This document shows, in pieces, positions 2,925 to 49,717 of a stretch of 64,000 bases of DNA. The stretch's first letter is position 1; each line of letters begins with the position of its first letter. The notes under the pieces were generated by a model, which worked only from the letters and a program-made list of their open reading frames with translations, did no database searches and had not been told where the DNA came from. The position numbers and the translations under genes are program-made. Origin of the DNA: Eledone cirrhosa (lineage: Eukaryota); contig OZ024740.1 of NCBI GenBank assembly GCA_964016885.1, positions 393,948,001 to 394,012,000 on the forward strand, in the 5' to 3' direction.

Positions 2925-3464
2925 ACAGGGGATACAGGTTTTGACCCTGTCTAATAAATTTTGTCAAACATATATAGGTTATCAGGGCCATGTGGCAGCT
3001 GCATGCAGAACATAGTGCAGACTGTTCGAAAGATATGGTTGTTTAACATATCAACTCACTGTGGGTGGCATTTTGGCATTTTGAATGCAGATACAGTGCA
3101 TGTGGTTGGCAATAATCGGCCATAATAAATATAAGGTGATTATAAATAAATTTCTTTGCTAAATGAAAGAGATAGTGGGTTTTTTTTTTAATACTGAATG
3201 AATGCATCCATTGAAACTAGCGTATTTAACCCTTTCGTTACCATATTTCTAACAAACTTCGCTGCTATAATTTTCAAACAATTTTAAAAATAACCATGAA
3301 CGTGCAGAGATTTTCCTATTCAGTTGGTGATTGGAACATTTCACAGAGTGTCTTGTCTTACATAAAATGATAATGATAATGGAAGCTTTATATATATATA
3401 TATACGTATAAATATGATAATAATACAAGGAAGAATGGTTACTCATTCATTATATTTATTGGTT

Positions 3465-3549
3465 GGTGACGCGCGTTTCGCGACTGATCAGCTGAAGGTT
3501 CGATCTGTATCGATTTAGCCCGACTCTGGAATGAAAAGCTCGTCGGACC
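3465..3549 (-). ncRNA. Mirror copy of the hammerhead with a core U4C change
   Basis: Minus strand reads ggt-CCGACGA...GAAA-CGCGCG-TC-acc, with palindromic stem III ACGCGCGT. Confidence 0.6.
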
Positions 3550-3581
3550 TCTGTGGTAGTAATGACAGAAAATATCACAGA

Positions 3582-3666
3582 GGTCTGACGAGCTTTTGAT
3601 TCCAGAGTCGGTCTAGATCGATACAGATCAAAGCTTCAGCTGATCAGTAGCGAAACGCACGTCACC
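3582..3666 (+). ncRNA. Type I hammerhead ribozyme with long stem II
   Basis: ggt-CTGACGA-[gcttttgat...atcagtagc]-GAAA-CGCACG-TC-acc: intact core, G10.1-C11.1 pair, GUC cleavage triplet, short helix I ggt/acc. Confidence 0.75.
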
Positions 3667-3808
3667 AACCAACAAACGTAATGAAAGAGTAACCATTCTT
3701 CCTTGTATTATTATATTACACTCTGTCTAGCTCTACACCTCGATACTGACGTGAAACTAAACATGGAGTGCTCACCCGGGTGAACCTACAGTAACTCCGC
3801 GTTGCACT

Positions 3809-15742: not shown

Positions 15743-16120
15743 TCAGGTCACCAGTTGGTGCTACTGGTAACATGTATCCCAATACAACCGTCTCATGATC
15801 GGGTCGTTGGCGACTAAACTGGCAACCCCACCAAGGTTTCTTGGTGAGGAGGGTGACTTTGGACATACTGCAGGACTAAAAACAAAACCTGTCAAAGCCC
15901 AAGTAGCTCTTAAGAGTCAATGGCCATCCAAAATGACCGGGAGAGATGACCCCTTAGCCTTTGTCAAGGCAGAATTCTAGGAGAAGGAAAACTCTGATAT
16001 AACACCTGCAACCCTGATGGTATCCAATGATGTTGACTTGTTCTTCTTTTTGGTAAATATCATCTTGGTTAAGAGAGTGGGACTGGCTTTGTGCAGTGCC
16101 TTTGCTCACTATAAAAGCTT
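15743..16120 (+). mobile_element. 5' half of the bipartite RTE-derived element (longest 5' end in the window)
   Basis: 15938-16120 matches 17984-18166; the copy ends abruptly at aaaagctt. Confidence 0.8.
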
Positions 16121-17965
16121 TTCCATTAATGGATTGTACTTGAAATTTCCTAACTAGTTGTGTTCTTTCTGTTCCTGTGAAGCCTAGCTTCTCAAGATTT
16201 GTATTGAGGCAGTTACTAACATATCCTAGTGCCCCAATAATCACAGGCATAAATCTGAAGGTGTAATCATAGTGGAGTATCTGCAGATTTCTCATCAGGT
16301 CTGCATAAATATTCTCCTTTTCGCTAATCTTTGATATAATATTGACATCTGCTGGGCAGCTAATTTCCACTACTGTGCATGCTCTCTTCTCCCTGTCCTA
16401 TATCATAATATCTGGTCTATTATGCCTGCATTTTATTGGGGTTTTTACTTGAACATTCCACCAGTACTTTTTCATATTATGTACATGGATGTCTTCCACA
16501 TTGCTGTAGCTTTTAATGTGTTTATTATCGGGGCTATCCTTTTTACGAACTGCATTGTACAGGGTTTTGGCCACTACATCATGCCTCATAGGTAGATAGT
16601 ACCGCGATGACACCTTTGGACAGCTGCTGATGACATGGGTGATATCCTCTATGTTAGTTCTGCAGAGTCTGCATTTGTTTTGCCTGCATCCCTATCTCTT
16701 TTATGAATCAGGTATTTCGTGTTAATCTCCTGTTCTTGGATTGCAAAAGCGTATCCTTCAAAGTGGGAGCCAATATAGCGGTTGTTGGTCCAAGACAGGC
16801 TATTTCCTTATCTATATTACTCTCACTCTGGAGCTTCCTGGCAACATATCCATGCATGATTTTTTGCTGATAAGCATGCAGTTTTTCATCCATGGATTCA
16901 CTGTGATACTGCTGAGCAACTTCCCTGGGTGTAAGGTTTTGATTATCACACAGGGAATATCTCTCGAGGAGTTCCTTCCCAACTGTCATGATCTTATCTG
17001 TTTCATGCAGATAGACTTGCTCGAGAAACGGGCTCCTACGCTCCTATGTTGTCTGGACTGATGTTAGGTCTCTACCTCCCTGCTTACGTTTCAAGTAAAG
17101 GCGGTCTATGTCACTGTTCATGTGGAAGTTTCCGGTGTTGTTTAGTATTTTTTGATTATTATCATTATCGATAGTATTTTCCACAACAGACGAGGTAGAC
17201 TTGGATGGTACACGTGGTGTCAAATATCTTCGATTATTATTATTATTTCTTCGATTATTATTATTATCGATAGTGTTTTCCCCAGCATTCGAGGTAGACT
17301 TAGATGGTACATGTGGTGTCAAGTTTCTTACAGGCATAGTTGTTTCAAGGCACTGTTCAACCTGGCTGCTAGGAAGTCTAGTTACATGGAGACCTGTAGC
17401 ACGTGTTGTTGATAACATGTTCGTTGTGGGGACTTACAATTAATACTATTTATCTTATTTTTACGTTCAACAAACGTCGCTTGTTGGCGTAATTGTTTCG
17501 CTGTGAAATAATTTAGCTCTGGGTGCATTTCGTCCCAGTGTAGCTTCATTCTGTTCATATAGCCAATGGATGGATTGCTTTTTGCCATTTTATAACAATT
17601 AAATAAATCATTATTAAGTTCGCAACTCCAAGAGAAATGCGATTCATAATTTCGGTCTCTTCTGTAGCTACAACTGAATAAAGTTTGTTTACCTCTCTTG
17701 TTGTTTGTCTTCGATACTTCCTTAATTTTGTTGTTGATGTTGTGTTCAGCCATGCTGTTTGTAGCAAATCCTTGTAAAATGAATTATGTATTTAGTCGGA
17801 TGTCTCTACGAATTCGAATAAAAGGTGTCTTCAGAAGATATAGTTAGAAGAATAACCAGTTATTCAACGTGACTGTAGTTGTGGCATTACTATCGGAGAT
17901 AGTATTCATCTTAAATTTAATAAATAGTCTCCCACGCCAAAATATGCGACTGATCGCGTTGACTG
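16121..17965 (-). mobile_element. Internally deleted R4/Dong-like RLE retrotransposon
   Basis: N-terminal WSCELNNDLFNCY...GYMNRMKLHWDEMHP...QLRQQ is fused near 17152 to the RT thumb, then CCHC relic and RPDI...EISCP RLE; highly similar to 46624-49112. Confidence 0.85.
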
Positions 17966-17983
17966 TATATGTATATGCATCTC

Positions 17984-19013
<1,030 letters not shown>

Positions 19014-19082
19014 GTATGTATGTATGTATGTATGTATGTATGTATGTATGTATGTATGTATGTATGCATGTATGTATGTATG

Positions 19083-19750
19083 TTTTATAATTTCACAAAT
19101 GTTTGCCAATAGAGAGAGAGTCAGTTTCTAACATAGACACACGACTCTCTCATTGGAATTTACACAACTGTTACTGTGAAGCCTACCTTCTCAATATTTG
19201 TATTGAGGCAGTTACTAACATATCCCAGTGCCCCAATAATCACAGGCATAAATCTGAAGGTGTAATCAGGGTGGAGTATCTGCAGATTTCTCATCAGTTC
19301 TGCATAAATATTCTCCTTTTCACTAATCTTTGATATTATATTGGCATCTGCTGGGCAGCTAACTTCCACTACTGTGCATGCCGTCTTTTCCTTGAGCCAT
19401 ATCATAATATCTGGTCTGTTATGCCTGCATATTATTGGGGATTTTACTGGAACATTCCACCAGTACTCTTTCATATGTATATGTATGTCTTCCACATTGC
19501 TGTAGCTTTTAATGTGTTTATTATCGGGGCTATCTTTTCTACGGATTGCATTGTATAGTGTTTTGGCCACTACATCGTGCCTCATAGGTAGATAGTACCG
19601 CGATAACATCTTTGGACAGCTGCTGATGACGTGGGTGACATATTCGATGTTAATTCTGTAGAGTCTGCATTTGTTATCACATCTAGGTTTTTTACCTGCA
19701 TCCCTATCTCTTTTGTGAACCATGTATTTCGTGTTGATTTCCTGTTCTTC
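19083..19750 (-). mobile_element. 5'-truncated R4/Dong-like copy (CCHC, RLE, 3'UTR)
   Basis: ORF 19160-19723 contains CRLYR...HVISSC and RPDIMIW...EVSCP; its 3' end abuts (TATG)n at 19011-19082. Confidence 0.88.
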
Positions 19751-21079
19751 TATATTTCCTTCTCCCCCATCCCTTCCTAGTCCTTCCTAGTCCTTCCACC
19801 CCAGTCCTCCTTCTTTGTCGTCGTCCTTTTCACTTTCTCGCCCACCCGAGGCAGCTCCTCTGTCCTTTGTAGCCTCAGTACCCCCACCCCCATCCCCAAT
19901 TCTATGATAGAATTGGCCGACTCCGCTTTTTATAGCAGATGTGATAGACCCCGGTTACTTGCTTTCTTATCGGATGGCTGCCCCATTTCCGTGCTTTCTA
20001 CATTTCTTAGTGGTATCTTTGCTTTAATTTCTCGTATATCAGTATTTATTTTTTGGGGGGGGGGGGGGGGGGATTCTGAATTAATTTTCCGTATCAAATT
20101 TTTCATATACTTCGTACGAGCATTTATGTAGTTTGCACTAGAATTTTTGTATCGTAGCGGCACCCTTAGAGATAGTATTAGTATTCATTTTCGGGATTCT
20201 GAATTATTATTTCGTATTAGTTTATTTTTTGCACTGGGTGGTTGCTGGCCTTGTGCCTAGGGTAGAAACAATTATTTCGTATTAGTCTCGGGACTCTGAA
20301 TTATTATTTCGTGGTAGTTTCTTTAGTATTTTGGCCCCCCACTTGTTGTTCTGTCACCGTAAGATATACTCGGTTGATTACTACTAACTCTTAAAATGGT
20401 CTCATTATAATTCCGTCCCACCTAGTAAACTTTTCTATAGTTTAGCAGTACCAGTGAGAGACTTGATGACTGTCGTTAGGGAATAATAACCAGAAATTGT
20501 TTTTTTTTTAATACTTTTAACATTCTCGGTATTCTTCTATATATTTACCCCATATTGTTTTACTTATTGTTTCGACTTCCTCCGCCTCCCCCTCCCTAGT
20601 ATATTTGCTTGACCTCCTTCCCTACTGTAGTTGGCACTATCAACGCACGACTGGGTTTCCTCCACCCCCTCTCCCTCTTTCTTCTACTGGCAGGTTCAGC
20701 TACCCCTTCCTACCACAAATTGCCATGATAGAATTATGTGTCTCAACAACAAACTTTTGACCAATCCTTGTGACAATCACTTTTACCATATATGGAATTA
20801 CCCCCTGGGAAGCTCGGCTATTCATATACCAGGATAAAAATTTTCATTTAGTCCAGAATTAGCCGTCGAAACGTTCCTATATATATATATATATAAGAGA
20901 TATATTTTAACTTTAATTATATCTCATAAAATAATACAACTGGCTTTTCCACATAATACATATTGTTAGCACCCCAAACACTTAAATTGGGTTTATATTA
21001 AAATATAACCTAATGTTTGTTGAGTGAGATGGTTACCAGTCAGAGATTAGCTTTAAACTATCTCTGTTATTGTATTAAT

Positions 21080-23388: not shown

Positions 23389-23615
23389 GAAATACATACA
23401 GTACACAAACACATACACACACACACACAGACATACACACACACATATATATATATATATATATCTATCATACACTATATACATATATATATACATATAT
23501 ATCATACACTATATACATATATATACATATATATATTTAGAAACATATGTATATTCATAAATACATACACATGTAGAGAAATTAATAAGTGTATGCAATT
23601 TGACACGTTAAAGCA

Positions 23616-24170
23616 GATGTGTATGTATGTCCTTATGTGTATGTGTATGTATGTCCTTATGTGTATGTGTATGTATGTCCTTATGTGTATGTGTATGTAT
23701 GTCCTTATGTGTATGTGTATGTATGTCCTTATGTGTATGTGTATGTATGTGCTTATGTGTATGTGTATGTATGTCCTTATGTGTATGGGTATGTATGTCC
23801 TTATGTGTATGTGTATGTATGTCCTTATGTGTATGGGTATGTATGCCCTTATGTGTATGTATATGTATGTCCTTATGTGTATGTATATGTATGTCCTTAT
23901 GTGTATGTGTATGTATGTCCTTATGTGTATGGGTATGTATGTCCTTATGTGTATGTGTATGTATGTCCTTATGTGTATGGGTATGTATGTCCTTATGTGT
24001 ATGTGTTAGTGTGTCTGCATGTGTGTGTGTATGTATGTCCTTATGTGTATGTGTTAGTGTGTCTGCATGTGTGTGTGTATGTATGTCCTTATGTGTATGT
24101 GTTAGTGTGTCTGCATGTGTGTGTGTATGTATGTCCTTATGTGTATGTGTTAGTGTGTCTGCATGTGTGT
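23616..24170. repeat. Minisatellite with an 18-bp unit (atgtgtatgtatgtcctt) switching to a 36-bp unit
   Basis: Direct inspection; explains the MCMYVL repeat ORFs. Confidence 0.95.
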
Positions 24171-24351
24171 TTGAACAAGGAAACAGAAAACGTGGGTTTA
24201 TAAGTCGTTGGGGGTTAAATAAATATATCAGATCATTAAGCCAAGAATACGCAGAGAAAAGGAAATAAGAGCATGGGTGGCTATATTAGTGCACGTGAGC
24301 TGCCATGTATGTATGTATGTATGTATGTATGTATGTATGTATGTATGTACT

Positions 24352-31431: not shown

Positions 31432-31780
31432 TGAGATAACATTTTGGCCGTTTGGACTGCTGCTATTTCTAGTGGCAGGACATTGACCTGTCCACCCTGC
31501 CTTTTGTCTTTGCACACGGCGCCAGACAGAATTATTTCTTTCATCATCCGCTCTCATTTGGGAATGGTTTTGTATGGCGTCAGTTTGTGATTTGAACTCA
31601 GGAATTTTATATTCTCCGAGGGAGAAGAGCCTTCTGAAGATTGCTCCCTTCTCAATGGAAATCCGCTTGGATTTTCCGTTTATTCTGGAGTATGAAACCG
31701 CGGTAAAGGCACATATAGTAAGTACAGCGAACTTTTTAAAATTTATTTTAAAACTTTTTCTCTATTTGCTAGACCTCGAT
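31432..31780 (+). mobile_element. ~350-bp TA-flanked HHR-bearing repeat (Penelope pLTR-like or retrozyme-like)
   Basis: Diverged reverse-complement homologue at 36689-37028; contains an intact HHR core. Confidence 0.8.
31629..31710 (+). ncRNA. Type I hammerhead ribozyme with long stem II
   Basis: gcctt-CTGAAGA-[tgctcc..aatggaaatcc/ggattttccgtt..ggagta]-GAAA-CCGCGG-TA-aaggc; helix I gcctt/aaggc; GUA cleavage after 31705; U-U at 10.1/11.1. Confidence 0.82.
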
Positions 31781-31839
31781 TATATATATATATGCACACT
31801 CACGGACATCACAATTTCTTCAGACTAATACTTTGCCCA

Positions 31840-32072
31840 AAAAGAAGTAGGAAAACTATCAAAATATAAGAATCTTTAAACTGAAATATACAAACCGATG
31901 GGAAAATAGTTGAAAACAACAGTGCCAACAATAATTGGAGCACTAGGTATGATAAAAACTGTGAACAAAAAACATAGAAACCATACCAGGTATCACAACA
32001 TTACTTACTATTCAAAGAATAGCTCTGCTAGGAGCAGCCTACGTCCTGCACAAGCCATTATCGATTCAGTAG
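31840..32072 (+). pseudogene. Old R4-clade RLE C-terminal relic
   Basis: KEVGKLSKYKNL...TVPTIIGALGMIK...IQRIALLGAAYVL, with stops and frameshifts. Confidence 0.65.
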
Positions 32073-33789
32073 CATAGCTGAATCAGAAGACCGAGAGGGA
32101 GTGCTTGGAAACTGGAATGTCTCCAAGCGATCACAGCTCTCAGCCATTTGGGCAGTGCTATCGGTGGAAACTTAATCTTTGAGTGTGCGCCTTTAAATTG
32201 GAGGAGAACATCTGAGAGAGGGTACTTGCCCTAACGGTCAAGATTACCGTGATTTTATGTGAGCTTCCTCCATGAATGACCCTCGGAGGTATCCTCATTT
32301 TGGAGGAATTTGTTGTTTTTATTTTAAATGTTTATTTTTTAGTCTGCTTTATAAACCTTTCCTTCACAAAACACACTGTACTGTCCTGTAATGTTCTGTA
32401 CTGATCTGTATTGTCCTTAATGTCCCCCTAATGCTAGCCTTGTGTGGCTAATAAATACATCATTATTATTATTATAATTCCTGGAACATTTTCCTCGGTC
32501 AATGCTTTAAATTGTTGAATCAGAGAATCTATTTTTACTTAGTTCCATTATATTCTGAGTCATTCTCAGATCTAGAAAGTACGAACAAGTTTGAAGAGCT
32601 GTAATAAACATAAGTTACTTCATGCAATTTTCAATAAATTTGAATGTTGGATTATATCTTCCTTGCATTATAACTGACATTTTTTCTTTTCAATAAGGAT
32701 GTAAATTTAGTCGCTTAAACTTTTCTTCTTTTGTGGGGTTTAGGGGTGGTATTACTGTATTAAGTATGTTAGTTCCCACGTAAATATATGTTCTTCATGC
32801 AATGTTCACCTACTGGAAATTTCCACATGTCTTTAGATTCAATGTATGGTTAGTTTGAGTGAAACTATAAAATTCAATCCATGCAAGATACAATAAACTG
32901 CATAATAAACGAATCTCTATTAAGCACACGCTCCTCATTATGTCACATAAAATCAGGCGAATGTTACAGTTAATCGTTATTAAATTTAATTTACGCACAG
33001 ATATAATTTAGCCACAGAATGCTTACAAACCATGAAAGCAAAATAAAATTGAAATAACAGCTACAAAAATTAAAAAAAGTATATATAAAATACCCTCCTC
33101 ACCTTTCTTCCTAGAAATAATCAAAATATTACTTCGATCAATCAATCTAATTTATTGATTAAGCGTATCGTTTTCATTTCTACCTTTCATTAACAAAGTA
33201 ACTCAGATATTTGTCGTGTGAGCAAGGGTTAATAACTATATTGTACGCCTGAAATTAAAAACAACAATAAAACCAAGACAGCAAAAATTACTAATAAAAA
33301 AAATTACTGATTATAATTCTATTTATTTGTTTCTCTTTACTTCATTCACTTTAGTGTTTAATAATAATTTTTTTTCTGAATTGTCTTCATAATATTTTGT
33401 TATATTATTTCAATAAAACAACAACAACAAAAAAAATATCAGGCTCCCATTATTTTAGACTTCGTTCTATCGTCAATGTGTGACATTGTTGTTCTTGGTT
33501 AAGAATCAGGTCATCACAGATCGATAGATATATGATCAAATGCGTTCTAGCTATGACCATTCCATCTTTCTTTTGCAAAATTTGGAATGGAATAAATCTC
33601 CGTCGATTTTGATGAGGAGTGTTCCTGGTGTTTGATCAACGGAAAAGCCTGCGTATGATATTAATTTACAAGCAGTCAAGCATTCTACAAACACATGTAT
33701 CTTTAACGTAATTATCGGTGAGATTCACCGTGACCCTGTGTGACATAGCTGGATCTTTGAATTACATATATAGTGCACCTGATGGGTTT

Positions 33790-33895
33790 CCAAACAGTTT
33801 CTGTCTACCCAATGTAACTCACAAGGCTTTGACTAGACCTGAGGCTATAATAAATGAAACTTGCACATGATGCCATATAGGATCGAACGCCAAGC
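33790..33895 (-). mobile_element. Old SINE fragment of a family recalled from Octopus genomes
   Basis: cagtttctgtctacccaatgtaactcacaaggctttg...gaggctata...acttgc...ggatcgaac; recognised from memory only. Confidence 0.5.
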
Positions 33896-34526
33896 AAATG
33901 TCTATGTCATTCCTCCATGTCGCGCTCACTTTATAAGTGAAATGAATATAGCAAATACGTTAAGTGCGTAATTAAAAGGAGATTTCGCTATTATAATAGG
34001 CATCTGTGTAGTGGTTAAACATTTCATATCTTGAAAACCATGTGTGAGTGCGTATGTATCTGATAAGGTTTTTATCCCCAAGTGAGATATTTTGTTTAAC
34101 ATGTTCATCGGTTGTTCTTTATTTGTTGTTGAGGCACATATAACCCCTCACTCACAATAGCATAAACTATGTCTTTGACCAACGTCGGTTGGTCCTGTAG
34201 TTAATGTCCTTTACGTTCTATATTTACATATGAATGGAAATACAATAGATTACTAATAATACAAGACAGCTGTCAAGTGTAACATGGTTTTATAATAATT
34301 TCAGCAAATTTTAAGTGAAGGGCAGAGCAAGAGATAAACTGGTGGCAAACTGAGAACTTGCTGAATTAAAATTTTACTTACAATACTAGCACAAGTATGG
34401 GACTCTGCAACAACCTGGGAGTTTACTTTTAAACTAGAAAGAAAGCAATATTGTTTAGATATGAGAATTAGTGTTATCAAAAGTGCTACAATGCCAAACT
34501 AAATGCTTTTTCTATAATTTCCATTG

Positions 34527-35130
34527 TTTGGCTGACTCGTGTGTGCCGAATAGCTTGAATCTCTGGAAAGGCACCTAAGCAATGGCAATCAGGAGTGAAA
34601 ATACCAATCTTCAAAAAGGGAGACAGAGATTGCTCTAATTATAGAGGGATATCCTCGTTATGCCTCCCCGGTAAAGTCTGTACAACGTGTCTGGCAAAGA
34701 GATGAAGAGATATTGTCAGAGTCTAAGCTAGCTGGCGAACAGTGTGGTTATCGCTTCTGACTCAGCACGGCCGACCAAATATTCAGGTTTTTAAGAAATC
34801 GTGGGAGTATTGCCAAGAGGTGTATACTTATTTTGTAGACCTTGAAAAGGTATATGGCCGCATTCTACGGGATATGTTGTTTGAAGGTTCTGCAAGAGTA
34901 GGAGGTCGATTAACAGTTTCTTGTTGCCCTGGTGTCTTTATACGAATGCTTTAGTATTTGTTTTCGGATAAAAGTCTAAACCATTAATGAATAGGATTGA
35001 CATCCGCAGCTGGGTTGGAAGTGGTATCAAGACCCAAATGGCTAGAATTTGTGAACGACATTGTATTACTTAACACGTCAGATAGTGATCTCCGACATGC
35101 TCTTGATAGGGTTGTTCATTACTGTTGCTA
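34527..35130 (+). pseudogene. LINE (RTE-like) reverse transcriptase relic
   Basis: SGKAPKQWQSGVKIPIFKKG, CSNYRGISSLCLPGKV, FVDLEKVYGRI, FVNDIVLL..SDLRHALDR. Confidence 0.8.
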
Positions 35131-35289
35131 TTGATTTTGTTGTTGCTATGAAAATTATCATTACTATATTTAAGGATATTAAGGATCTTACTAGAGCTTA
35201 TCTCCCGAACTTGTATCGAATTCGAAACTTGTATCGAATTCGAAAGGCCATACATAAATTTACGTAATATGCTATTGTGAGTAATTATA

Positions 35290-36135
35290 TTTGAGCGTCT
35301 ATTTCTACAGTTATTTTTATCTATGTGGTATTGGATATTTTCATTATGACCTGATTTAGTTAACACCTCATTATAATATTGTGTATATTAGTTAAAAATA
35401 ACGCTGCTAGAGGATAGACTAGAGATCCTATTGGATACATTTTTTACTATAGACTTAAGTATAGTTTTAGGGAGACATGAGAGGTTATTTACGTAGAAAA
35501 AGTGCTTATGGTGAGGCTTATAAATCCCGGGATATAAATCAAAGGTGATATCTAGGAAATAAACTACTTTATTATTTATATCTATCGTAATGTTCAAGCC
35601 ATTATCTTAAAGAAAACCTATGTAAGTGTTTTTTGTTCTTTCTAGATTTCTTATATTGTAGTTAATTTTAAAAAAAAGCATCATCGCGATATAAACCTCC
35701 GTTTATGAAAAAGGATTTTATGTAGACTACTTAATAAGAGAAGACAAACTGTCAGTAATCTGAGCCGAATCACTAGAAGATTCTATTGTGATATAAAAGT
35801 TATCAGGATGATTCTTCCAGGTCCAGAGGTTACTGTCAAATTCTATTAATGTTTTCCTTGCGGCCAAGATGATGTCAATTTCAGTTCTAGTTAGATTGCT
35901 CATACTTTTTGTTAAAATTAAAGCTCTATTTAGAAGTTTAGAAAATATAGAGTAATAATAATTATCTATGTCAAATTGTATGAAACTAATAACATTTTTA
36001 TCTTCTAACTTAATGAATCAATTTATTGCCTTATTTGGGTTATTCCAATGGCTTAAGTTTATTTTTAGCGAGTATTTCTTTGCTATTTACCCTTATATCC
36101 GACGTAGAGGGAGAAAAAGTCGAATTTAAGGGTCA
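35290..36135 (-). pseudogene. Penelope-like element reverse transcriptase relic
   Basis: FIQFDIDNYY...AARKTLIEF...W, catalytic GGLYRDDA (35678-35700), and YFLDITFDL..GIYKP...YVN...RISSLSS. Confidence 0.82.
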
Positions 36136-36149
36136 TTATTACAGTCCTA

Positions 36150-36242
<93 letters not shown>

Positions 36243-36278
36243 TAGGGCGGGTAAAATTCCCGAGATCCATGGACGAGT

Positions 36279-36592
36279 TCTCTCTAGCGGTCTCTGTCCC
36301 TCATTATCACTGCCATGTCCTGCGTCTCCAACAGACTAGTGTCTGTCCTTAGGGCATCATTATACGTTAACCTTGGTCTTACTCTTCCAGTGTGTCCATG
36401 TAGGGGCTCCCACAGGAGCACTGAGTGCAATGTCAACTCTAGATGCCGGTGAGCATGTCCAGCTAACCTCAGTCTCCTCTGTGTCACTTTTGAGCTGACT
36501 TTTGGGAGGCTCCCATACAGCTCTGAGTTTTTCATCCTCAGTGTATACTGATTAATGTTCAGAGCCATCCTCACCATTCTTGTGTAGCACCC
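36279..36592 (-). pseudogene. RTE-like LINE C-terminal fragment
   Basis: RRLRLAGHAHRH...VLLWEP.HG...GRVRPRLTY. Confidence 0.8.
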
Positions 36593-36688
36593 AGGAATTG
36601 ATCTAGTGGTATTTAAGTAACAGCCGTACTAAGAGTGGGAAATGAAATTCGTTTCATTTTCTCCGTTTATATATATATATATATATAT

Positions 36689-37028
36689 AATCAAGGTTTA
36701 GCAAATAAGAAAAAGTTTTAAAATAAATTTTTAAAAGTTCACTGTACCTGCTGTAATTACCCTTACCGTACGGTTTCAAGTCTCAAAATAAATGGATAAT
36801 CCATGCGGAAATCCATTGAGAAGAAGACTTTCGTCAGAGGGTTCTTCTCACTCAGAGAATATAAAATTCCCGAGTTCAAATCACGAACTGGCGCCATACA
36901 GAACTGTTCCCGAGATGAGAGTGTATGATGAAGAAACAATTTTGTCTAGTGCCGTGTGTAAAGATAGAAGGCAGGGGCGGAAAGGTCAATGTACTGCCAC
37001 TAGAAATAGCAGAAGTTAAAACGACCAA
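36689..37028 (-). mobile_element. Second copy of the ~350-bp HHR-bearing repeat
   Basis: Homologous to 31432-31780; TA tracts on both sides. Confidence 0.8.
36759..36842 (-). ncRNA. Type I hammerhead ribozyme with long stem II
   Basis: accct-CTGACGA-[aagtctt..aatggat/atccatt..gagactt]-GAAA-CCGTACGG-TA-agggt; all helices pair; GUA cleavage triplet. Confidence 0.88.
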
Positions 37029-37135: not shown

Positions 37136-37996
37136 ATATATATATATATATGTATAATCATACATACACAAACATACATGCATATATGCATACAGCATAC
37201 TTACATACATACGTAAAAACATACATACGTACATATATACATACATACATAAATTCATTCATTCATACATACATACTTACATACATACATACATTCATTC
37301 ATTCATAATACATATAGATATTTATTAAAAATTAAACCATCCACATGGAAAACCATAGCTAATTCATTGTTAATACATTTAATGTAGCAAACATAAAAAA
37401 ATTAATTAAAAATACTTTGTAATTAGATTTTCGATACTTACTAACTTACCCATTATTTTTCATACGGATGGCGTCTCTGGGTAATTAGCATCAGAAAACC
37501 AATTTTTCAGTATGGTAATTCTTTTACTTTACATATATCATATATCTACATAATGATGCTTTTATCAATATTCTGGCAATTACTTGAGTCGAAATACTCA
37601 AAATAATATTAATCATTGTTAATGATGCCTTTTCCCCCTGGTATAATTACTTGAAGTTAGATTATTTTATGTGTAATTCGTTGCATTTTTCAATACTACG
37701 AGGTAGCCCCAAAGTCACTAGATCATTGTAGAATATAATAACCTCTTACAATTAATTTGTAATATATAAAAGGGTCATTATATTTTGAATTGATCTAGTG
37801 GTGTTTGGCCAAACTAGGTGTATATATATATAGAGAGAGTATTTACGTATTTAGAGAGAGAAAAAAGGAGGGATAGGTGATACATGTAGTTATTTGCCAA
37901 ATAGCGTATGCAGAAGGTGCTCAATACTAGTGCCGGCAGTATTAAATATTAGAAGTGTTAATATTTAGTGGGCGAGAGAGTTAGCAGAGCGTAAAC

Positions 37997-38096
37997 ACGT
38001 GGGAAAGTAAGAAATAGGAGAACAGACCGTTAATACAAGTTTATTTTAATAAACTTGTATTAACTGTCTGTCCTCCTATTTCTTACTTTTCCACGT
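37997..38096. repeat. Near-perfect 100-bp hairpin abutting (TA)n
   Basis: acgtgggaaagtaagaaatagg...tttatt-tt-aataaa...cctatttcttacttttccacgt. Confidence 0.9.
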
Positions 38097-38118
38097 CTAT
38101 ATATATATATATACATAC

Positions 38119-38504
38119 AGGAAAAGAGTCAGGACCCCGATGGCTGAGCTCCGGCCGTTTCGACAGCTAGATTTCGAACTCGGATCTAGTCGAAACGACC
38201 AGAGCTCAGCCGTCGCGGTCCTGACTCTTTTCCTATTACCCACTCTACTACCCTAAGTATCGAGTACTCTGGTGCGTTATGGTCCACCTGGTATCTTACT
38301 ACACCTTCTTTGTTATATATATATATATATTAAACGAAGGAAGTGTGGTAAGGAACCAGATGGACCATAACGCACCAGAGTACTCAATACTTAGGGTAGT
38401 AGAGTGGGTAATAGAAAAATGTTTAAACTCGACGGCAGAGCTCAAGCCGTTTCGAGGGCCGTCGAAACGGCTTGAGCTCTGCCGTCGGGGTTAAACATTT
38501 TCCT
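38119..38504. mobile_element. Two fold-back elements in inverted orientation around a TA spacer (dumbbell)
   Basis: Hairpins at 38119-38234 and 38413-38504; bodies 38235-38312 and 38332-38412 are inverse copies. Confidence 0.85.
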
Positions 38505-46623: not shown

Positions 46624-49112
46624 TTCTTCTGGTTTTATAATTTCACAAAGTTTTACCAATACAGAGAGAGTCGGTTTCTAACATAGACACAAGACTCTCT
46701 CATTGGAATTTACACAACATCAACTAGGTAGATATGTATGTATGTCTGCATGCATGCATGTGTATGTTTTGAGTTGTATGTGTGCATGTGTATATGCTTT
46801 GTATCTGTACATGTGTATATGCAGTTATTAGATGCAACATTTTTGGAATGTTTTACATATTTTTACTGTTCCATTAATGGATTGTACTTGTAATTTCCTA
46901 ACTAGTTGTGTTCTTTCTGTTCCTGTGAAGCCTAGCTTCTCAAGATTTGTATTGAGGCAGTTACTAACATATCCCAGTGCCCCAATAATCACAGGCATAA
47001 ATCTGAAGGTGTAATCAGGGTGGAGTATCTGCAGATTTCTCATCAGTTCTGCATAAATATTCTCCTTTTCACTAATCTTTGATATTATATTGGCATCTGC
47101 TGGGCAGCTAATTTCCCCTACTGTGCATGTTTTCTTCTCCCTGTCCCATATCATAATATCTGGTCTGTTATGCCTGCATTTTATTGGGGTTTTTACTGGA
47201 ACATTCCACCAGTACTCTTTCATATTATGTACATGGATGTCTTCCACATTGTTGTAGCTTTTAATGTTTGTTATCGGGGCTATCATTTTTACGAACTGCA
47301 TTGTACAGTGTGTTGGCCACTACATCACGCCTCATAGGTAAATAGTACCGCGATGACATCTTTGGGCAGCTGCTGATGACATGGGTGATATCCTCGATGT
47401 TAGTTCTGCAGAGTCTGCACTTGTTATCACATCTAGGTGTTTTGCCTGCATCCCTATCTCTTTTGTGAATCAGGTATTTCGTGCTAATCTCCTGTTCTTA
47501 GATTGCAAAAGCGTATCCTTCAAAGTGGGAGCCAATATAGCGGTTGTTGGTCCAAGATAGACTACTTTCCTTATCTATATTACTCTCACTCTGGAGCTTC
47601 CTAGCAACATATCCATGCATGATTTTTTGCTGATAGGCATGCAGTTTTTCATCCATGGATTCACTGCAATACTGCTGAGCGACATCCCTGGGTGTGAGTT
47701 TTTGATTATCACACAGGGAATATCTCTCAAGGAGTTCCTTCCCAACTCTCATGATCTTATCTGTTTCATGCAGATAGACTTGCTCGAGAAGCGGGCTCCT
47801 ACGCTTCGAGGTTCGTAGATGTTGTCGGAGAGATATGATGCGACATTCAAATGTTGTCTGGACTGATGTTAGGCCTCTGCCTCCCTGCTTACGTTTCAAG
47901 TAAAGGCGGTCTATATCACTGTTGATGTGGAAGTTTCCGGTGTTGTTCAGTATTTTTCGAGTTCCAACATCAACTGCTCGGATTTTGTCTATTGTCCAAT
48001 TGAGTATTCCAAACGTTGGTGTTAGGACAGGCACAGCAAACACATTGTGAGCCACTGTTTTGTTTTGCGCAGAGAGTTCCGATGTCCAGATCTTTCTTAA
48101 TCGGGTGTAGTATTCCCTGGTTACGCGTTCTTTATTACAGATACCATTATAGAATATGTTCTCATCTATCCCCAGGTATCTGTAGCAGTCCTCATCAGAT
48201 ATCGGTGAAACAGTTAGACCATTGATGACAATGTTGCTAGATTGGGTTGTTGTTTTTCCCCGCTTTACAGTCATGTATGAGGATTTATCTTGGCCAAACT
48301 CCATTCCTATATCCTTTGAGAACGTTGTAACCAGGTCAAGATTTTTCTTCATCCCATCCATGTTCTTGGCATAGAGTTTCAGATCGTCCACAAAGAAGTT
48401 ATGGGTTAGGTTCGTATTTCTGTCCTCCTGTGAGCCAATGATGTATCCCTCACATTTCTTGAACAGAAAGGACAAGGGGTTTAATGACAAGATGAACAAT
48501 ATCACAAAGAGACTGTCCCCCTGAAATATACCCCTGCAATATTTTATTTTATCAGTGAAAGTAGAGTCCTCCTTCTCTGTCTTTAACCTTAGGATAGTAG
48601 CCCAAGAAGAAGACAGCCTCTCTATGGCTCTGACAATAATGTCTGGGACTTTAGCAAGTTGGAGGGCCTCTATCATCCAAGAGTGGGGAACAGAATCGAA
48701 AGCTTTCTTGTAGTCCAGCTAGACTGTAGTCATATTCCTCCTAAGTTGTCGCACCTCCGACATCGCAGTTTTGTTGATTAGGAGTTGTTCAGCACATCCC
48801 CAAACCCTTTTCTTTCCAGCTGCTTGTTCATCTGTGATGATGTTATTATTTTCACAGTGATCTTGGAGGAATAGGTTGTGGCAGGCCGTATACATCTTAT
48901 ACATCAGGTTCTGGCATGCAATGGGTTGGTAGTTTTTTGCCAAGTGGGTGTTTTTGTTCTTGGGGACCAGTAACGTTTGTGCTAATGTCAACCATTCTGG
49001 TATAAGTGTATCTCCATTAAGAACTTGTTGGTAGAGGTCAGTAAGATACCTCCGATAGAATATTAGTTTTTTGTACCAGTAGCCGACAATCATCTCTCTT
49101 CCTGGTGTTTTC
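46624..49112 (-). mobile_element. R4/Dong-like non-LTR retrotransposon (RT, CCHC, restriction-like endonuclease), 5'-truncated and inactivated, inserted in (TATG)n
   Basis: NYQPIAC, LDYKKAFDSVPH, GIFQGDSL, FFVDDLK, YRYLGI, CRLC..HVISSC, RPDI.IWD..EISCP..K..EK, PVIIGALG; stops at 48719 and 47498; frameshift near 47280; TATG arrays at 46551-46623 and 49113-49187. Confidence 0.93.
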
Positions 49113-49187
49113 TTATGTATGTATGTATGTATGTATGTATGTATGTATGTATGTATGTATGTATGTATGTATGTATGTATGTATGTA

Positions 49188-49717
49188 TTATCTCTTTCTC
49201 TTAATTTCGAGTATATTTTTTTGACCGGCCACCTTCCTGGTGGCAGGTTGTAAATGAAAAGAAATTGTCATCCCTTGAGTCGCAAGAATGTTTTGCAAAT
49301 TTTGAAGGTGCCAGCTATCGCAGCCATTTGTAGACTATGAATTAGGGAGCTGCGCTTTTTGTCCACAAATCCAAGTTCAGTCATACTTTGGTCCAAGCGG
49401 GTTGGTATATAACCCGTAGCTCCAATAATGATGGGTATGAAGCTAAAGGTGTATCTTGGATACTGGATTTGTAAACTCCTCATCAATGGTCCGTAGATGT
49501 CCTCCTTCTCCTGTATTTTTCTGACAACGTTTACATTAAGTGGGCAGCTGATCTCCACAACAGAACACGTTTTCAATGTGTGGTCCCAAACAACAATATC
49601 AGGTCGGTTGTGCTTTAATTTGGTGGCAGTTTTTATTTTCAGGTTCCGCCAGTATTCCTTAGTGCCATCTGTCTCAATATATTCTTCCTCGTTTGTTGTT
49701 TATTTTGTTTTCCGAAG
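49188..49717 (-). mobile_element. 3' fragment of a second, distinct R4-clade RLE family, also TATG-flanked
   Basis: RPDIVVWD..VVEISCP..KIQEKEDIY..PIIIGATG..KICKTF; diverged from the neighbouring element. Confidence 0.85.

Follow-up and report, generated by a model that had tools for sequence, protein, structure and literature searches.

Decayed retrozyme insertions in Eledone cirrhosa and a predicted pseudoknot in their long-stem type I hammerhead ribozymes

Two hammerhead ribozymes lie in a 64-kb stretch of the genome of Eledone cirrhosa (OZ024740.1, 393,948,001-394,012,000), referred to here as the window, to which unlabelled coordinates are relative. They probably belong to decayed insertions of a ~480-nt retrozyme in which a type I hammerhead is braced by a predicted Watson-Crick pseudoknot between bases 5' of helix I and the internal loop of stem II, and which was likely copied into (TA)n targets by enzymes of Penelope-like elements (PLEs). 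This account builds on the observed unit size, tandem arrays, copy number, subfamilies and insertion scars, and on observed covariation in helices I and II and between a purine tract 5' of helix I and the stem II loop.

Two hammerheads in a noncoding tandem unit

An earlier note on the window had placed one hammerhead on each strand, and a pairing-checked scan of both strands of the 64 kb returned these two sites as its sole matches, as did a covariance model trained on 20 members of the family. An Rfam scan of the window at E≤1 gave 89 matches, none of them a hammerhead. The claim of intact cores was borne out in both copies, which retain CUGANGA, GAAA and an NUH triplet together with helices I-III, helix I being open (type I). 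The extended stem II of ~53 nt was likewise upheld, since it folds far below shuffled sequences (z -4.7 and -4.3; 0/200). The features of the two copies, with the hammerheads delimited by core, pairing and fold analysis, are as follows.

31433..31781, + strand: retrozyme copy 1, subfamily A0, 5'-truncated, ~349 bp of a 483-490-nt unit, (TA)n tract on each side
31622..31627, + strand: copy 1 purine tract GAGAAG, directly 5' of helix I; predicted pseudoknot strand
31629..31710, + strand: copy 1 type I hammerhead
31629-33/31706-10, + strand: copy 1 helix I, 5 bp
31634-40, + strand: copy 1 core CUGAAGA
31641-93, + strand: copy 1 stem II, 53 nt, U.U at its base
31648..31653, + strand: copy 1 stem II internal loop, 5' strand CUUCUC, complementary to 31622-31627
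31694-97, + strand: copy 1 GAAA
31697-31704, + strand: copy 1 palindromic helix III
31705, + strand: copy 1 H17, with the predicted cut after it
31711..31781, + strand: copy 1 post-cut hairpin, ending at a U/A-rich fixed 3' end followed by (TA)n
36689..37028, - strand: retrozyme copy 2, subfamily A1, 5'-truncated, ~340 bp of a 478-486-nt unit, (TA)n tract on each side
36843..36850, - strand: copy 2 purine tract UGAGAAGA, 5' of helix I; predicted pseudoknot strand, up to 8 bp
36759..36842, - strand: copy 2 type I hammerhead
36842-38/36763-59, - strand: copy 2 helix I, 5 bp
36837-31, - strand: copy 2 core CUGACGA
36830-778, - strand: copy 2 stem II, 53 nt, A-U at 10.1-11.1
36817..36824, - strand: copy 2 stem II internal loop, 5' strand UCUUCUCA, complementary to 36850-36843
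36777-74, - strand: copy 2 GAAA
36774-65, - strand: copy 2 10-nt palindromic helix III
36764, - strand: copy 2 H17, with the predicted cut after it

The copies are 82.8% identical over 355 nt, belong to two subfamilies and lie on opposite strands with no long reading frame between them, and they are therefore independent insertions of these subfamilies. A single composite element spanning both was rejected on the same grounds, no frame of ≥120 aa being present between them. Within the ribozyme region each copy is only 1-2 bases off its subfamily majority, and the two-sided helix changes that distinguish the copies are fixed differences between subfamilies. Compensatory change had been claimed for every helix; helices I and II do covary, but helix III differs by a 2-nt insertion that keeps the palindrome. 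Similarly, the repeat described as ~350 bp long and TA-flanked is indeed bordered by (TA)n but is only the 5'-truncated piece of a 478-490-nt unit, and the U.U mismatch at 10.1-11.1 of copy 1 had been overlooked. The window copies, with one ribozyme each, are likely dead ends and are in themselves ordinary decayed insertions.

Copies 1 and 2 are truncated members of a noncoding tandem unit, a retrozyme, and not PLE ends. About 2,700 first-look candidates were obtained in the genome per window copy, the best-scored being 95-98% identical, and in relatives of the window copies the repeat extends upstream into head-to-tail units. Cut-to-cut monomers from nine subfamilies measure 459-493 nt at 33-39% GC, with no open reading frame (ORF) noted; as circles they adopt branched folds of lower energy than shuffled sequences (z -1.7 to -8.5; 12 shuffles each). 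One array contains 9 x 483 bp, and another has two opposed arms in which at least 28 units recur every ~457 bp (G000:C1:156425778-156438443); the arms of the latter, of 19 and at least 9 near-identical 457-bp units, mark it as very young. The small noncoding unit thus occurs in tandem with one hammerhead each, free of an attached reverse transcriptase (RT) ORF and of long terminal repeat structure. A genome-wide pattern scan for the exact long-stem motif of this family, designated group A, gave 3,739 matches and 0 in the control. Setting stem II to 8-38 nt in this pattern left just 26 matches, and 24 of these, judged by eye, resemble deletion derivatives; the long arm is therefore a fixed trait.

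When 139 distinct motifs were clustered, 21 clusters were obtained, 15 of them with at least two members. Stem II usually has a basal helix of 6-7 bp that opens into an internal loop and is closed by a capping hairpin of 11-12 bp, and folding is poorer in a few damaged copies; in group A the 5' strand of the loop is a pyrimidine run of 5-7 nt and the 3' strand is U-rich. In a MAFFT alignment of 20 diverged copies, two-sided changes affected 19/30 pairs and the covariation score of 0.431 was reached by 0/500 shuffles, slid controls remaining at ≤0.22; alignment A1 misregisters some rows, which lowers the counts, and kinship of the copies inflates the scores. The helix covariation and the tandem units sustain the proposal that a retrozyme carries a long-stem-II type I hammerhead of conserved structure. 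An extension of helix I on its distal side was rejected, as the strand past helix I makes its own hairpin.

Among genomic copies chosen by overall similarity, the core is intact in 24/29 and 28/30, and mutation in the ribozyme region compares with that elsewhere as 2.97 to 2.35% and 2.89 to 2.88%. Genomic copies decay neutrally, and the signal of selection sits between subfamilies. A ribozyme region that mutates about as fast as the rest of the copies would suit a DNA-level satellite, or a repeat resembling a miniature inverted-repeat transposable element (MITE), with a decayed and non-functional motif. Neutral decay after insertion is nevertheless expected anyway, the core is kept and the helices covary between subfamilies, and fixed 3' ends with variable 5' ends point to reverse transcription, which leaves that origin with hardly any probability.

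Predicted pairing between the purine tract and the stem II loop

The purine tract 5' of helix I likely pairs with the 5' strand of the stem II internal loop, forming a pseudoknot that would replace the usual loop 1-loop 2 contact. In group A sequences, the tract is the reverse complement of the loop strand in several variants, namely GAGAAG/CUUCUC, GAGAAA/UUUCUC, GAAAAG/CUUUUC, GGAAAA/UUUUCC and GGAAA/UUUCC. The native pairing run averaged 6.2 bp in 17 subfamily sequences, against 4.8 with swapped partners (0/20,000 permutations), although the subfamilies are related and permutation values are accordingly not probabilities; 17/21 clusters entered this comparison, four being left out for a truncated or damaged 5' flank. 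The 20-copy alignment displays two-sided changes in 4/6 tract-loop pairs, and on the tree the changes fall between two main clades and inside one of them. The extension of stem II, for which a tertiary contact had been suggested, is thereby identified with a covarying predicted pseudoknot.

The pseudoknot idea was derived from group A, and a prediction for two further groups of long-stem motifs, B and C, was written before their flanks were read.

Group B: helix III ACCAUGGU; 2,445 genome motifs, control 1
Group C: helix III ACUAAUUAGU; 10,846 genome motifs, control 0

The advance prediction held clearly in group B and more weakly in group C. Among 32 copies of group B, tract and loop read GAGC/GCUC in 17 and GAGU/ACUC in 12, mixed pairs being absent (0/20,000 permutations). 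Group C varies among GAGAA/UUCUC, GAAAA/UUUUC and GGAAAA/UUUUCC, and 507/20,000 permutations did as well. Groups B and C have weak homology to A outside the ribozyme and hence are not fully independent of it.

The clearest pseudoknot covariation is that of group B, whose motifs are spaced ~650-720 nt apart (e.g., L151:2944-3041, L256). Group C consists of ~520-570-nt units with a GUU cut triplet, a long stem II as in A and an invariant C.A at 10.1-11.1 (e.g., L099:347-445, L258). A further motif, GAAACAAUUGUAA, has 17,955 matches (control 248) and covers at least two additional hammerhead-like families (L288-L299; L095:2246-2387; L119:2362-2504; L294-L296), one having a CCGAAGA core variant and a short stem II and one a stem II of 58-62 nt.

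Folding calculations agree with an accessible loop strand, which is unpaired in the nested ensemble (P 0.92-0.98). In full context, freeing the tract costs ~1 kcal/mol, compared with ~-6 for the tract-loop duplex; the tract is at least half paired in 8/17, 7/11 and 0/11 cases and is cheap to free. A decoy hairpin acting as an off switch was rejected, since it appears only in short folds. The strand directions of the pairing may fit a fold with stems I and II parallel, and the pseudoknot may make up for a mismatched 10.1-11.1, a position that is paired in 10/21 group A clusters. The 3' loop strand, which would be the third strand of an ENE-like triple helix, is U-rich in A, UUUAU/C in C and A-rich in B and shows no covariation, and a general triple helix is unsupported in group B.

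The energetics of helix III bear on how cleavage would proceed. As a monomer hairpin, helix III is marginal (+1.9 and -0.9 kcal/mol for copies 1 and 2), whereas the dimer duplex reaches -14.1 and -16.4; because helix III is weak in the monomer and strong in the dimer, these models make dimer cleavage likely, at least for the subfamily of copy 1. The same self-duplex, together with a stem II base that is often mismatched and the finding that the hammerhead of a green anole PLE cleaves only with protein (PMC11167929; here and below, literature statements refer to the portions of the cited papers drawn on), is compatible with a long stem II that is mainly a recognition site for RT or a host protein, a tract-loop pairing that is an alternative or inhibitory fold, and a ribozyme that works only as a dimer through palindromic helix III. 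Such an arrangement is unlikely. The nested ensemble gives tract-loop pairing a probability below 0.01, which does not favour it as an alternative secondary structure; the loop strand equals the paired tract in length in most subfamilies; a conserved decoy hairpin is lacking; and the capping hairpin is highly variable in sequence and length. Dimer cleavage and the pseudoknot are, moreover, compatible with each other.

Insertion scars and the probable mobilising enzyme

Retrozymes were likely copied into (TA)n by Penelope-type enzymes, a partner that is deduced from scars and not from sequence. Among 122 insertions, 109 end in (TA)n and 57 begin in it, and 44 have an inverted 5'-truncated partner. 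Length exceeds one unit, giving a partial tandem, in 64 insertions, a count that must be read in light of the fact that about half of the scored loci were BLAST similarity picks of ≥331 nt, which inflates insert lengths. The 3' ends cluster at U/A-rich sites +70-99 (83 insertions) and +170-209 (34) past the cut, and the U/A-rich 3' end of copy 1, ~76 nt past its cut, may represent the first of two RT priming sites. Partial tandems, inverted 5' copies, optional tails and (TA)n targets are features of PLEs (PMC8557442); their counterparts here number 64, 44, 34 and 109 of the 122 insertions, respectively, although the retrozyme 3' tail is ~110 nt and that of PLEs 30-40. Two internal initiation sites have been demonstrated for an anole PLE (PMC11167929).

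None of 95 insertions had its 5' end 0-3 nt from the cut, in a refined count of loci with at least 88% identity, and this fits a circular or uncleaved template. A peak of 5' ends at the cut was rejected: seven apparent cases were BLAST edge artefacts, and the refined 0-19 bin held 6 against 3.8 expected (p 0.19). As the loci were picked for carrying the motif, their spanning of the cut site is partly by construction.

A mechanism can be proposed in which tandem arrays would be transcribed and the pseudoknot-braced hammerhead would excise monomers, working singly where helix III comprises 3 bp and in pairs, via the palindrome, where it comprises 2 bp. Monomers would be circularised, by analogy with other animal retrozymes. 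A Neptune-type RT/GIY-YIG protein might then nick (TA)n, prime at U/A-rich internal sites ~80 or ~190 nt past the cut and read through the intact cut site, which would yield partial tandems and inverted 5' copies. This scheme fits published work (PMC7229834, PMC8557442, PMC11167929, PMC3088659).

A candidate source of the enzyme is present in the genome, where 10,595 GIY-YIG candidates were counted. One locus (L121; G000:C1:145869500-145877500) is a near-intact Neptune-type PLE with a 938-aa frame containing RT, CX4CX2C and GIY-YIG; its pseudo-long terminal repeats (pLTRs) are 97.8% alike, and the element ends in (TA)n. The C-terminal GIY-YIG, CX2-5CxxC linker and (TA)n target agree with the Neptune clade (PMC8557442), an assignment made from features and with a linker that Nematis shares. 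In the pLTR hammerhead of this element, stem II is 4 bp long, the core is U3-A8 and the palindrome measures 6 nt, and the U3-A8 short-stem motif has 19,771 pattern matches in the genome (control 29). A protein search with the PLE ORF returned 789 homologues, a few of which are filed under bivalve-symbiont assemblies.

The possibility, entertained in the earlier note, that the long-stem repeat is itself a PLE family or pLTR failed, in that a PLE ORF in pLTR geometry was present at 0/217 retrozyme loci and the pLTRs examined have a short-stem hammerhead. Its premise that PLE hammerheads have a tiny helix II was also wrong. None of 48 PLE loci carried the long-stem motif in a pLTR. Two loci at which the motif resembled a PLE pLTR (L131, L122) proved to be nested insertions in TA tracts, and of 804 matches to a long stem II with PLE-type helix III, nearly all of the 100 listed were PLE motifs of short stem II preceded by a spurious core. 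Retrozymes do occur in or adjoining PLE ends and TA tails (L122:6100-7420; L131:1174-2506; L092, L118), and at L092 no TA tract separates a unit from the inverted PLE 3' piece that it joins.

A related view, that the units are orphan pLTRs of an unsampled autonomous PLE and not an independent retrozyme lineage, draws on the ACCG..CGGU helix III core common to group A and the Neptune pLTR motif, on the CCUU/AAGG helix I that two subfamilies also have in common with that motif, on the derivation of Xenopus retrozymes from pLTRs by Li et al. 2026 (10.64898/2026.07.22.740005) and on the fact that 48 GIY-YIG loci were examined of the 10,595 candidates. It is nonetheless quite improbable: upstream of a unit lies another unit, an inverted copy or (TA)n; a PLE ORF piece occurs at 7/217 retrozyme loci, all seven on the opposite strand, beside the nested insertions already described; and the monomer profile detected no pLTR homology in the PLE loci searched.

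The scars could also have been left by a Naiad PLE or a (TA)n-preferring long interspersed nuclear element (LINE) in place of a Neptune-type PLE, given that Octopus Naiads likewise favour (TA)n (supplement of PMC8557442) and that the window holds many LINE RT fragments. Against this, fixed 3' ends at internal sites, like partial tandems and 5' copies in inverted orientation, are typical of PLEs, and cephalopod Naiads are described as long-inactive remnants (PMC8557442), whereas near-intact Neptune-type copies exist in this genome; the chance that such an enzyme was responsible is slightly smaller still than that of orphan pLTRs.

Several observations weigh against a pseudoknot-braced retrozyme copied by PLE enzymes, in addition to the relatedness of subfamilies and the inflated insert lengths mentioned above. 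Compensatory events in the group A tract-loop pairing are few, about three being independent on the tree; subfamily A2 has a G.A mismatch within the pairing; the pair is broken or lacking in 3/32 group B copies; and two group C copies kept the old tract with an altered loop. The 10.1-11.1 position is mismatched in 11/21 group A clusters and is C.A in 28/28 group C copies. In the minimum free energy structures of both window copies, helix III pairs with the core rather than adopting the active fold, and in vitro cleavage was found in just 1/9 Xenopus retrozyme dimers (10.64898/2026.07.22.740005). As for the link to PLEs, a group A monomer profile (nhmmer and blastn) found no pLTR homology in 58 PLE loci, only short core-adjacent motifs being alike.

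A more ambitious interpretation is put forward tentatively, with the odds somewhat against it. The ~17,000 exact copies in three retrozyme groups would form a structural class of their own among type I hammerheads: a pseudoknot reaching into the capped stem II loop, with U.A-U triples in group A, would supplant both the loop-loop contact and the otherwise conserved 10.1-11.1 pair. This would create a fast, monomer-competent ribozyme, as opposed to a minimal dimer-only one in the Neptune-type host, and the genomic copies would be traces of RNA circles that a PLE enzyme had copied, starting at either of two internal priming sites.

Elsewhere in the window, LINE fragments with RT and a restriction-like endonuclease motif lie beside (TATG)n tracts (47498-49699, 15954-19786, 46828-47319). 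Long perfect hairpins, MITE-like inverted repeats, are centred on or near TA tracts (3417-3714, 37995-38098, 38224-38423), and 24-bp tandem units in ~30 copies occupy 23449-24288.

Relation to known retrozymes and hammerheads

Retrozymes and pseudoknotted hammerheads are already known; the new element, not found in the literature searched, is the pairing of a capped stem II internal loop with a tract 5' of helix I. Neither this tract-loop wiring nor a cephalopod hammerhead was found described in that literature, whose supplements may contain such motifs. Lunse et al. in 2017 are said to have reported pseudoknots between loop II and bases preceding stem I.

The closest relatives are the metazoan retrozymes of coral, mussel and axolotl, which lack long terminal repeats and share the noncoding tandem unit with one type I hammerhead each, low GC and a short palindromic helix III (PMC7229834, 10.64898/2026.07.22.740005); a U.U at the base of stem II, as in copy 1, is reported for axolotl HHR_Amex2. 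They differ in unit size (~170-400 nt, against 459-493 nt here, ~520-570 in group C and ~650-720 in group B) and in having a non-canonical loop 1-loop 2 contact in place of a stem II of ~50 nt with internal loop, cap and Watson-Crick tract-loop pairing. Expression as linear and circular monomers is a further trait of such retrozymes.

Many hammerheads have a pseudoknot that joins the stem I side to the stem II side, and U10.1-U11.1 is tolerated (PMC3088659). In the pseudoknotted hammerheads of types I-III described by Perreault et al. (2011), ~40% of their set, a helix between the two sides similarly holds the active fold, but there a terminal loop pairs with a tail, stem II often being very short, whereas here one partner is an internal-loop strand inside a stem II that is long and capped. 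The hepatitis delta virus-like RNAs of toad and termite (PMC7936874) have type III hammerheads that also combine a short stem, internal loop and capping hairpin, with the 5' loop strand pairing to the other arm; these hammerheads form a mirror image in which the long arm is helix I, while in the type I genomic retroelement described here it is helix II.

PLE hammerheads (PMC4209133) resemble the retrozyme motif in being type I with a 4-5-bp helix I and palindromic helix III, and a motif of this kind is present in the Neptune-type PLEs of this genome. The rows consulted in Fig. S3 of that paper have a simple hairpin helix II with a loop of ≤9 nt, one row with an extra A before GAAA. The retrozyme motif, in contrast, keeps C3-G8 where the Neptune-type motif here has U3-A8, has a longer helix III and lacks an attached ORF.

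With more than 12 multi-copy subfamilies in one group, and three groups in all, the Eledone units provide a large natural mutational scan of hammerhead tertiary architecture. They also bear on two points left open in PMC7229834, namely the identity of the enzyme that moves animal retrozymes and the possible circularity of its template: the scars implicate PLEs and suggest that the template had its cut site intact, and the genome offers a near-intact Neptune-type ORF.

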